Of a stretch of DNA of 40,540 nucleotides, positions 25,073 to 26,509 are shown piece after piece. The stretch is from an uncultured Acidobacteriaceae bacterium (GTDB taxonomy: Bacteria; Acidobacteriota; Terriglobia; Terriglobales; Acidobacteriaceae). The stretch covers positions 1-40,540 of the forward strand of contig CAYOZX010000001.1 in the NCBI GenBank assembly GCA_964408515.1. The letters run 5' to 3'. The notes below the pieces were generated by a model. The model had not been told where the DNA came from and made no database searches. It saw only the letters and a list, made by a program, of their open reading frames with translations. The translations under genes and the position numbers were made by a program. Numbering within the stretch: the stretch's first letter is position 1; the number at the start of each line of letters is the position of its first letter.

Positions 25073-26509
25073 ATGCCTCCGGAGCTCCGTTCCCGCCCTG
25101 TCTCGTACCGGTTCGAAAACCTGTCCTCGCTCACTCACGCGCAAGTCCTTCTCTGGAACTGGTACATGCGCGTGGGACCTACCGGAACCGAGTGGGCCTC
25201 CTGGGTAGCGGATATTTTCGGACACCTGCTGGAGCGCCCCGCCGGACAGAAACTGCAACTGGCACAAACCCATCTGGTGGACGCCAATGCGGGCGAGAAG
25301 GTACTCAGCTTCGGATCCAAGCAGGAGCTGTTCCTGGGACGCAGTCCCGACAATGACATTGTCCTGCCCGCAAGTGCGATTGCGAACCGCCATGCCCGGG
25401 TAATCCTGAAGGAGGGCCGGCTGTACCTCGAGGATTTCGGCACCGCACTCGGGACCTATCACTGGGACAAGAAGATCCCACCCAACCAGCCCCAGGCCAT
25501 GACCGACGGCGACCAATTCACCATCTTTCCTCACCGCTTTCGTGTTCTTCTGGAGCGCAGCTGGAGTCCGGAGACCGACTTTGCCCTTAGCGAATGCCGC
25601 GTGGCGCCTGCCAGCCGGACGGAGTTTCTGCAGACCTCGCCTGCCACCTGGCGCCTGTTCGTGCTGAGCGCCCATCCTGGCGGCCAGCAGGCGGTGCTGG
25701 AGTTGAGTCCGACCTTTCTGGCCCATTTGCAGGAGCGAATCCTGGTTCCGCTGGGGCTGGAGCGGAGCCCGAACCCGGCTCCGTCCGATGACGCGATGCT
25801 GGGCTTCATCGTGCTGGGTCTTCTGGAGCAGCTCAACCGGAAATTGCGGTTTCCCTTGCAGTTCTCGCTGGTGAGAGGCGCGAGAAAGAACCTGGCCGAC
25901 ACATCTCCAGGCATGACGTTGACTTTCGCGCTGGGCGTGGGCGGCGTGACCGGGCACGTCCGGCTGTTCGTCCCGCTCGATTTTCTCCTTCGGTCTCAGC
26001 CCGAGACGCCGCCTGAGGCGCCCGGAAAATATCCCGCCGGGCTGGCCTGGAGTCTCCCCGTGGCCGCTGGATTTGTCGATCTGTCTCCAGATGAGATTGC
26101 GCAGGTCGGGCTGGGGGACATTCTGGTGGCGCAGCACGATCCCATGTTGCTTTTTCCGAACGACTTCGGCAAAGGCTGGCGGATGACGCGGGAAGCAAGC
26201 AACTCCCGTGGTTTCGTGGTCGATAAATACTGCGAAAGGAGTGTCTCTGTGGAATCGGGTGGCGAGGCGCAAGCATCGACCCGGCCGGACATCCGATCGC
26301 TGCCCCTGCGGCTGCAGGTCATTCTGGCCGACAAGGAATTCTCTCTGGGCGAGATTCAATCGCTCGGCCCGGGGACCATCGTGGAACTGGAAGCGGGGAA
26401 ATCAGATCCGGTGCGGCTGATGGTCAACGGCAAGATTCTGGGGGAGGGTGAACTGGTGGAAGTGGAGGGCAACCTCGCTGTCAAAGTGCTGCGCTGGCGC
26501 AGCGTCTGA
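25073..26509 (+). CDS. sctQ: T3SS cytoplasmic-ring protein SctQ (FliM/FliN family) carrying an inserted FHA-like domain
   Basis: The C-terminal SpoA/FliN domain reads LPLRLQVILADKEFSLGEIQSLGPGTIVELEAGKSDPVRLMVNGKILGEGELVEVEGNLAVKVLRW. Residues ~75-158 form an FHA-like module (LFLGRSPDNDIVLP..IANRHARVILKEGRLYLEDFGTALGTY). Confidence 0.85.
   Translation: MPPELRSRPVSYRFENLSSLTHAQVLLWNWYMRVGPTGTEWASWVADIFGHLLERPAGQKLQLAQTHLVDANAGEKVLSFGSKQELFLGRSPDNDIVLPASAIANRHARVILKEGRLYLEDFGTALGTYHWDKKIPPNQPQAMTDGDQFTIFPHRFRVLLERSWSPETDFALSECRVAPASRTEFLQTSPATWRLFVLSAHPGGQQAVLELSPTFLAHLQERILVPLGLERSPNPAPSDDAMLGFIVLGLLEQLNRKLRFPLQFSLVRGARKNLADTSPGMTLTFALGVGGVTGHVRLFVPLDFLLRSQPETPPEAPGKYPAGLAWSLPVAAGFVDLSPDEIAQVGLGDILVAQHDPMLLFPNDFGKGWRMTREASNSRGFVVDKYCERSVSVESGGEAQASTRPDIRSLPLRLQVILADKEFSLGEIQSLGPGTIVELEAGKSDPVRLMVNGKILGEGELVEVEGNLAVKVLRWRSV
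26199..26226 (+). promoter_or_regulatory. Internal GCAAC-N17-CGATAA motif inside sctQ, followed by AAGGAG and an in-frame GTG (possible SctQ-C expression signals)
   Basis: The elements are GCAAC (26199-26203), CGATAA (26221-26226), AAGGAG (26236-26241) and an in-frame GTG at 26249, 7 nt later. The GTG would start an 86-aa product consisting of the SpoA domain. Confidence 0.3.

Follow-up and report, generated by a model that had tools for sequence, protein, structure and literature searches.

In an uncultured Acidobacteriaceae bacterium, the sorting-platform protein SctQ of a non-flagellar secretion system of type III (T3SS) carries an FHA domain. The protein is encoded in the stretch of DNA analyzed here (the window; 40,540 nt of contig CAYOZX010000001.1, GCA_964408515.1, forward strand) by an open reading frame (ORF) at 25073-26509 on the plus strand, whose 478 residues comprise pre-FHA helices, the FHA domain, a FliM-middle-like domain, SPOA1 and SPOA2. 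A preliminary description of this DNA had placed an FHA-like domain at 25295-25546 (residues 75-158), and several lines of evidence bear out that fold. Residues 88-151 (25334-25525) match PF00498 with an E-value of 2.8e-12 and 47.3 bits, well over the gathering score, which is 20.7. An AlphaFold2 model computed with 31 homologues as input is all-beta over residues ~55-170, with a predicted local distance difference test score (pLDDT) of ~90. In Foldseek searches of the PDB, this model matched FHA structures at target-normalized template-modelling (TM) scores of 0.75-0.85, namely those of ArnA (5a8i), Ki67 (2aff), OdhI/GarA, MDC1, Rad53 FHA1 and Chlamydia CT664 (3gqs; TM 0.82). The structure prediction proposed in the preliminary description thus returned the eleven-strand beta-sandwich of an FHA domain; as a whole, the sandwich covers residues ~54-166 (25232-25570, plus strand) and is wider than the segment first flagged. 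Together with the residue mapping given below, the Pfam match, the model and the Foldseek results therefore confirm that this SctQ carries a bona fide FHA domain, far beyond chance.

The closest sequence relatives of this domain are signalling FHA domains. Searching the PDB with a profile of the SctQ family yielded FHA matches to EmbR (9e-14), GarA/OdhI (~1e-12), Rv1747 and Rad53, and no solved SctD cytoplasmic domain at E ≤ 0.01. Likewise, SctQ-FHA scored 21.4 bits against the Pfam family Yop-YscD_cpl, under its cut-off of 33.2.

The fusion marks one T3SS lineage, with ~90 close clusters and dozens of representatives at 26-41% identity, all syntenic. A word-indexed search returned 94 relatives at 48-81% identity, nearly all 475-483 residues long, and every full-length member among them has the FHA+FliMN_C architecture; the PF00498 match is also precomputed for all 90+ FHA-SctQ homologues. 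When 1.84 billion cluster representatives were scanned exhaustively with HMMER, 80 proteins fell below 1e-30, and dozens of representatives of 455-495 residues aligned end to end at 26-41% identity. All 16 placeable genomes with FHA-SctQ belong to the Acidobacteriota (Terriglobia), the hosts being Terriglobia/Terriglobales, Acidobacteriaceae, Ca. Sulfotelmatobacter, Solibacteraceae (39% identity) and Bryobacteraceae (34%), and the carriers seen were all metagenome-assembled genomes. In every orthologue examined, a comparison that had also been suggested at the outset, the FHA segment is present and conserved. Automatic annotations already record both domains, for example in the Joint Genome Institute (JGI) names of SctQ homologues.

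Conservation of the apical face

Residues of the phosphothreonine (pThr) site were mapped through gap-free HMMER alignments of SctQ-FHA to ArnA, OdhI and GarA, with codons checked, and their conservation was read from alignments of 31 close and 29 divergent family members. The Gly-Arg pair of the beta3-beta4 loop is kept as G89-R90 (25337-25342, plus strand; codons gga cgc), with G89 present in all 29 divergent members and R90 in 28. The SxxH motif reads A104-N-R-H107 (25382-25393, plus strand), so that Ser is replaced by Ala and His is kept, the latter in 28 of the 29. Position 104 is far more permissive: among the divergent members it is occupied by Gly (12), Ser (five), Thr (five) and Ala (three), as well as Asn, Arg and His, and Ser is found there in roughly a quarter of the close SctQ relatives. 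In the beta6-beta7 loop, canonically S-T-N-G-T, the window protein has T124-A-L126-G-T128 (25442-25456, plus strand), with Leu in place of Asn. Position 126 holds Leu (14), Met (4), Val (3) or Phe (2), also Ala, Ile or Ser, and Asn in none of 28 members. At position 124 of the loop (Thr in the window), 22/28 of the divergent members keep the Ser, and across the divergent family G127 and T128 hardly vary.

The preliminary description had stated that the pThr-binding Ser and Asn were both replaced. This is correct for the window protein (A104, L126), and the absence of Asn extends to the whole family; the Ser-to-Ala change, by contrast, fails as a family trait. Since Asn is never present and position 104 varies freely in these alignments, the loss of Asn is a family-wide trait and the Ser-to-Ala change is not, position 104 being under no constraint.

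A further conserved element of the apical face is F152-P153-H/Y154 (25526-25534, plus strand), at the turn between the last two FHA strands (residues 148-151 and 154-166 in the AlphaFold2 model), with F152 in 28/29, P153 in 29/29 and Tyr or His at 154 in 25/29 divergent members. In all, G89-R90, L98, H107-A108, E120-D121, G127-T128, G146 and I151-F152-P153 are near-invariant in or beside the apical loops, and W164 is likewise nearly invariant in SctQ-FHA; no part of the domain is more tightly constrained than its apical loops. Over the 31 close and 29 divergent sequences, FHA ranks second in conservation among the SctQ blocks, behind SPOA2; judging by these alignments, purifying selection on the domain is strong among members spanning 26-81% identity.

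SctQ body and internal start

The ORF at 25073-26509 is a genuine SctQ-type sorting-platform protein whose body spans residues ~170-478. This identity rests on SPOA homology, on hhalign alignment from residue 170 onwards, on a predicted internal start and on a position between sctP and fliO/sctR; in the window and 19 further loci, sctQ lies among sctN/O/P and sctR/S/T/U. Pfam places FliMN_C at residues 407-475 (E = 3.6e-16, 59 bits). Positions 111-300 of TIGR02551, the NCBIfam SctQ model, align to residues 298-475, for a total of 84.9 bits that stays under the equivalog cut-off of 100.8 because the canonical SctQ N-terminus (model positions 1-110) is unmatched. Among PDB entries, the C-terminus of the SctQ profile matches YscQ-C (3uep, the best, E = 2.6e-18), FliN, SpaO and HrcQ. 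An SPOA1-like region at residues ~322-390 (26036-26242, plus strand) is indicated by TIGR02551 and hhalign, with pLDDT <50 when modelled as a monomer. Preceding it is a putative FliM-middle-like domain (residues ~170-306; 25580-25990, plus strand), suggested by Foldseek, a hidden Markov model (HMM) and hhalign. In Foldseek, the post-FHA residues match full FliM C-ring subunits and the Helicobacter pylori FliM middle domain (4gc8; TM 0.58); the FliM HMM match is weak (E = 0.0025, residues 152-351), and pLDDT in this domain is 70-84. Assignment as flagellar FliM was rejected on the basis of a TIGR01397 score of 25 bits against a cut-off of 219.6, the two SPOA regions and a cluster devoid of flagellar structural genes.

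The domain may have been inserted into SctQ, as the preliminary description had it, or added at its N-terminus. FHA does lie within the SctQ protein; insertion is a candidate origin only, because SctQ homology begins after FHA and the residues before it have no detectable counterpart. A 404-aa SctQ from Kofleriaceae (Myxococcota; locus L026), which has FliMN_C only and no FHA, aligns in hhalign at 98.5% probability, pairing positions 170-476 with its 111-402, and homology to this FHA-less protein starts exactly after FHA, at residue 170. A proteobacterial (Pararobbsia) SctQ aligns in hhalign to positions 319-476 only. The pre-FHA segment (residues ~20-53; 25130-25231, plus strand) is modelled as helices at 22-34 and 38-52 and bears a conserved LWNW motif, with W28, N29, W30 and W41 conserved among close members. 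Its identification with the N-terminus of an FHA-less SctQ would prove insertion; however, for the ~55 pre-FHA residues, BLASTP found no counterpart in two FHA-less SctQ proteins and hhalign gave a probability <1%. Two proteobacterial non-flagellar T3SSs, matched via the SPOA pattern (L029, 9115-10222; L025, 9203-10273), also have SctQ without FHA; in one, SctQ is split HrcQA/QB-like into 238 aa and 133 aa, and in the other it is a single protein of 356 aa.

Within sctQ, a Shine-Dalgarno-like GAAAGGAG (26234-26241) is followed by a GTG start at 26249-26251, the two together covering 26234-26251 on the plus strand. In 17 of the 18 loci compared, which cover the full range of identities, codon 393 reads GTG, TTG or ATG; it is the sole column of 478 with start-type codons in at least 13 of the 18. 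Moreover, GAGAGGAG/GAGGGAGG occurs ~7 nt 5' of this codon in nearly all loci, inside the conserved FER(S/G) codons; the internal Shine-Dalgarno sequence is spelled by rare AGG/AGT codons of that motif. Given the conserved ribosome-binding motif and start codon, sctQ is predicted to yield an internally initiated SctQ-C isoform of ~86 aa (26249-26509, plus strand), which would contain SPOA2 (residues 407-475; 26291-26497). Internal starts giving SctQ-C, a hallmark of the sctQ genes characterized so far, are known for HrcQ (PMC8553256) and SpaO (PMC13059759).

Gene cluster and candidate partners

Upstream of sctQ lie, in order, genes for a sigma-70-family factor, a SctI-like protein, SctJ, a small ORF, SctL, SctN, SctO and SctP (19299-25061, plus strand); downstream, genes for a FliO-like protein, SctR, SctS, SctT, SctU, two unassigned proteins, two TPR chaperone-like proteins and SctV (26448-34500, plus strand), all assigned by Pfam and by synteny in 16 loci. 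After SctV, the plus strand continues with three small ORFs and another TPR protein, and then with a 168-aa protein referred to here as FHA-TM. Across 16 reference-genome loci the genes follow essentially the same order, which recurs in loci of members at 26-31% identity. Inspection covered the clusters and their ±10 kb flanks. Neither the window (searched with Pfam, NCBIfam and PDB sequences) nor the clusters of the 16 genome loci gave a family match to a secretin, SctK or full SctD. FliO (PF04347, 50 bits in the window) occurs without secretin in the related loci as well, as far as the clusters themselves are concerned.

FHA-TM (36942-37448, plus strand; Pfam FHA, 46.7 bits) is the last gene of the cluster in every locus examined, after sctV...orf120. 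At least 145 FHA-TM clusters are known, all of 166-184 aa and on the same contigs as FHA-SctQ. The GR, S-R-E-H and S-x-N-G-T motifs are invariant among 27 members; a variable linker rich in Pro and Ala comes next, then a conserved juxtamembrane motif and a transmembrane helix, 2-3 residues beyond which the chain ends; periplasmic ring-building domains are absent, and SctQ itself has no transmembrane helix. From its invariant motifs, linker and terminal helix, FHA-TM is thus a tail-anchored, fully canonical FHA protein, in effect a putative SctD reduced to its cytoplasmic domain and a minimal SctD-like element. Against Yop-YscD_cpl it scores 26.0 bits, under the cut-off of 33.2. The earlier suggestion of a truncated SctD-like protein holds: the cluster has no full-length SctD, and the short length is native, as the family-wide range of lengths attests. 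Rejected, on the other hand, is the proposal that the FHA domain had moved from SctD onto SctQ, because FHA-TM keeps a canonical FHA of its own, the two FHA domains have no detectable relationship (E = 0.077) and the SctQ-FHA profile finds no solved SctD domain. In JGI annotation, homologues of FHA-TM are often labelled automatically as part of 'type VI' secretion, and the metagenome locus L036 has two FHA-TM-like genes (2205-2662 and 5143-5490), the second on the opposite strand ~3 kb downstream of the copy at the conserved position.

Two Ser/Thr protein kinases flank the cluster in the window. The downstream one (635 aa; 37527-39434, minus strand; Pfam Pkinase) is convergent on FHA-TM; it occupies this place in L030-L032 and not in L034, L075 or L076, and was rejected as an obligatory partner, since it is not kept beyond close relatives. 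Upstream, divergent from the sigma-factor gene, Pfam identifies a giant 2089-aa Ser/Thr kinase with TPR and PEGA domains (12749-19018, minus strand). In L001, L009, L014, L016 and L072 the cluster has a kinase or giant-protein homologue upstream of it, and C-terminal matches to the giant protein occur in L008, L011 and L012; an upstream kinase or giant-protein homologue recurs in about half of the loci, one of them at 31% identity. The L072 protein is a Pkinase+FGE-sulfatase. The window shows no PP2C phosphatase.

Between sctJ and sctL, in the usual sctK slot, lies a small conserved ORF of 95 aa (21681-21968, plus strand), syntenic in 15 of 16 loci, represented by 17 clusters and modelled by AlphaFold2 as a five-helix bundle (pLDDT 88.5). 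It has no Pfam, NCBIfam or PDB-sequence match, and its Foldseek fold matches are all non-significant, seven of the nine weak ones being FliG chains, including FliG_N bound to FliF_C. Going by these FliG matches, the protein may be a mini FliG/SctK-like adaptor. The label of FliG_N-like ORF given to it in the preliminary description accordingly finds faint support in the fold and none in sequence; identification as SctK or FliG_N is a hint only, the FliG matches being non-significant.

Several other features of the stretch deserve mention. The FliO-like gene (26448-26942), between sctQ and sctR, is kept in all related loci of this non-flagellar cluster; so far, reports of FliO in non-flagellar T3SSs concern Myxococcota and some Proteobacteria. 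SctR (FliP family; 26912-27829) contains an Ala/Pro/Gln-rich low-complexity insertion of ~70 residues that splits its Pfam match in two. The conserved run after sctV (35437-36938) consists of an ORF of 101 aa, a Gly-rich one of 121 aa, a TPR protein and an ORF of 120 aa, a layout that recalls a small substrate with chaperones, and no needle or translocator family was detected in it; for the Gly-rich ORF, the idea of a needle protein, prompted by a C-terminal resemblance, found no support from Pfam or the PDB and was dropped. A 289-aa gene on the opposite strand (34514-35383, minus) interrupts the co-directional cluster and is kept in most related loci, and its homologues show a faint GNAT acetyltransferase signal. 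The cluster invariably opens with the sigma-70-family factor (19299-20267; regions 2 and 4), immediately upstream of the sctI-like gene; this factor may be a dedicated cluster regulator, and its ORF call probably starts too early, with homology from around residue 58-90. Positions 1-12700 are unrelated to the T3SS and encode a BlaR1/M56 peptidase, an rve_3 transposase, an aspartyl protease, a class-C-type beta-lactamase-family protein, a DUF4386 protein, an MFS transporter, an amidohydrolase and a 511-aa protein without family.

Candidate roles and relation to known systems

The explanation we favor, tentatively and at slightly under an even chance, is that SctQ-FHA is built into the pod for docking or regulation, at the end that faces the membrane, and binds its partner in a non-canonical manner. 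The domain would sit at the N-terminal end of SctQ, which in injectisomes is the SctK-binding end; the equivalent face of flagellar FliM binds FliG. The conserved and partly hydrophobic apical face (R90, H107, L126-G-T, F152-P-Y) would bind a conserved partner, candidates being FHA-TM, the 95-aa helical protein at the sctK position, the SctJ tail or the export gate. In characterized injectisomes, the N-terminal domain of SctQ binds SctK, which in turn binds the FHA domain of SctD through apical loops and lateral strands (PMC9907115). The SctD domains have no pThr residues, and the contact is phospho-independent (PMC9907115; bioRxiv 10.1101/2020.09.22.308627). Partner binding by SctQ-FHA would probably be similarly independent of pThr, or weakly dependent on it, and FHA-TM, canonical and membrane-anchored, would be the most likely reader of phospho-signals from the kinases. 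A rewired interface between platform and basal body, as the preliminary description envisaged, is plausible.

Several observations weigh against this docking role. R90 is near-invariant, the loop Ser is present in 22/28 members and the nearest relatives are true pThr binders, which therefore leaves room for phospho-dependent binding. The 95-aa protein may itself be the adaptor, in which case the FHA domain would be dispensable for docking. The AlphaFold2 monomer model is of low confidence outside residues 55-310, including SPOA1 and SPOA2. The domain may follow the first helix and precede the first strand of a CheC/FliM-like fold, a placement read from secondary-structure order only, with partial reference to the topology of FliM. 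Finally, the absence of SctD, SctK and secretin holds for the clusters and their flanks, and a full SctD, SctK or secretin may be encoded elsewhere in these genomes.

The strongest competing proposal, unlikely in our view though to be taken seriously, is a phospho-switch in which SctQ-FHA binds pThr through R90, Ser/Thr124 and backbone amides. The neighbouring kinases would phosphorylate a T3SS component or themselves, and binding by SctQ-FHA, with or without FHA-TM, would trigger or block platform assembly, much as PpkA-Fha1 controls type VI secretion or CheY-P acts at the FliM N-terminus. In its favor, R90 and H107 are present in 28/29 members each and the loop Ser in 22/28, the best sequence relatives (EmbR, GarA, OdhI, Rv1747, Rad53) bind pThr, Ser104 is present in about a quarter of close relatives, and two kinases flank the cluster, with upstream kinases recurring in L001, L009, L014, L016 and L072. 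However, the Asn that anchors the peptide backbone is never present, its place being taken by Leu, Met, Val or Phe, and the beta4-beta5 Ser position is free to the point of admitting Gly, Arg and His. Kinase linkage, moreover, is not universal, no conserved Thr-containing candidate site appeared among the proteins inspected by eye, and the cluster already possesses a fully canonical FHA, that of FHA-TM, for reading pThr.

SctQ pods act as the sorting platform for chaperone-substrate complexes. The FHA domain could be an extra sorting surface for TPR chaperone-substrate complexes or for a lineage-specific effector, rather than a membrane dock. The cluster encodes at least three TPR chaperone-like proteins and several small proteins of unassigned role, in conserved order, and the conserved apical face fits a conserved ligand; yet the domain is at the N-terminal end of SctQ, which in characterized systems faces SctK and the membrane and not the ATPase/cradle side (PMC9907115), and we regard this role as improbable. 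That the domain is a decaying insertion, a mis-assembly or a gene fusion created by sequencing error, as two missing canonical ligand-binding residues might suggest, is effectively excluded by the conservation data, a single ORF of 455-495 aa being found across independent assemblies in ~90 close clusters and dozens of 26-41% representatives, with constant length and synteny, FHA as the second most conserved block and G89 and P153 invariant.

Like SctQ of other systems (YscQ/SpaO/Spa33/HrcQ), the acidobacterial protein has SPOA1-SPOA2, YscQ-C as its best PDB match, TIGR02551 similarity over 180 residues, a predicted internal SctQ-C start as in HrcQ and SpaO, and a gene located after sctP and before the export-gate genes. 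Unlike them, it is ~170 residues longer, with N-terminal helices and an FHA domain absent from characterized SctQ, and its middle domain is detectably FliM-like. The cytoplasmic domain of SctD (PrgH, YscD, PscD, MxiG), a degenerate FHA that docks SctK, offers the precedent of a T3SS FHA domain without the full pThr set; as SctQ-FHA also lacks part of that set, it too probably mediates protein-protein docking at the junction of platform and basal body. Here, however, the FHA domain is on the pod protein rather than the inner-membrane ring protein, scores as a generic FHA and keeps the beta3-beta4 Arg, which SctD domains do not have (bioRxiv 10.1101/2020.09.22.308627). Resemblance to FliM lies in the putative FliM-middle-like fold followed by a FliN-type SPOA and in the presence of an N-terminal partner or signal module. 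In FliM, the N-terminal end provides a CheY-P-binding peptide and a FliG-facing surface. FHA-SctQ differs in having two SPOA domains and a predicted SctQ-C start, both SctQ traits, and an FHA domain instead of the CheY-binding peptide, and its cluster has no flagellar rod, hook or FliG/FliF genes.

The most similar system is T3SS* of Myxococcus xanthus ('Myxo'), a basal non-flagellar T3SS of a soil host, whose cluster likewise has no secretin and several LcrH/TPR chaperone-like genes, and which has FliO (PMC12248157). The FHA-less Myxococcota SctQ aligns, as noted, to residues 170-476 at 98.5% probability. In contrast, M. xanthus T3SS* is reported to contain SctD (PMC10433427), whereas the acidobacterial cluster has FHA-TM in its stead together with FHA-SctQ, and the one Myxococcota SctQ examined is without FHA.

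Canonical pThr readers on accessory or ring proteins occur in the type VI secretion system, as Fha1/TagH with PpkA/PppA, and in Chlamydia, as the FHA of CdsD (CT664) with PknD. As in those cases, FHA proteins are encoded here with a secretion apparatus and Hanks-type kinases lie nearby; the difference is that the canonical acidobacterial reader is the tail-anchored FHA-TM and SctQ-FHA is degenerate. Outside Chlamydiae, Proteobacteria and Verrucomicrobia, no non-flagellar T3SSs were detected by Abby and Rocha (2012), and full-text searches of the literature yielded no description of FHA on SctQ/FliN-type proteins or of a non-flagellar T3SS in Acidobacteriota.

How the platform attaches to the membrane ring, and how this is regulated, is a less resolved part of T3SS biology, known only from a few proteobacterial pathogens and from flagella. 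The FHA-SctQ system is a deeply conserved natural variant from a soil phylum that is abundant but not commonly associated with non-flagellar T3SSs: an FHA fold, normally a property of the ring protein, is on the pod protein, the ring protein is seemingly reduced to a tail-anchored canonical FHA, and kinases stand on the borders of the cluster. Flagellar traits, namely FliO, the FliM-like middle domain and possibly a mini-protein akin to FliG, here occur together with traits of injectisomes (SctJ lipoprotein, SctI/O/P, TPR chaperones, and SPOA1-2 with a predicted internal start for SctQ-C), which makes the system informative for the flagellum-to-injectisome transition proposed from Myxococcales systems. 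A bolder and rather doubtful possibility is a T3SS without SctD ring, SctK or secretin, in which the function of SctD would be split between FHA-TM and SctQ-FHA and the platform would dock by a direct, kinase-gated FHA contact. If so, this would be a third way of coupling C-ring or pod to basal body, next to flagellar FliG and the SctK-SctD pair of injectisomes, and possibly a living intermediate between the latter two. FHA-SctQ also supplies concrete residues and candidate partners with which such coupling can be tested.

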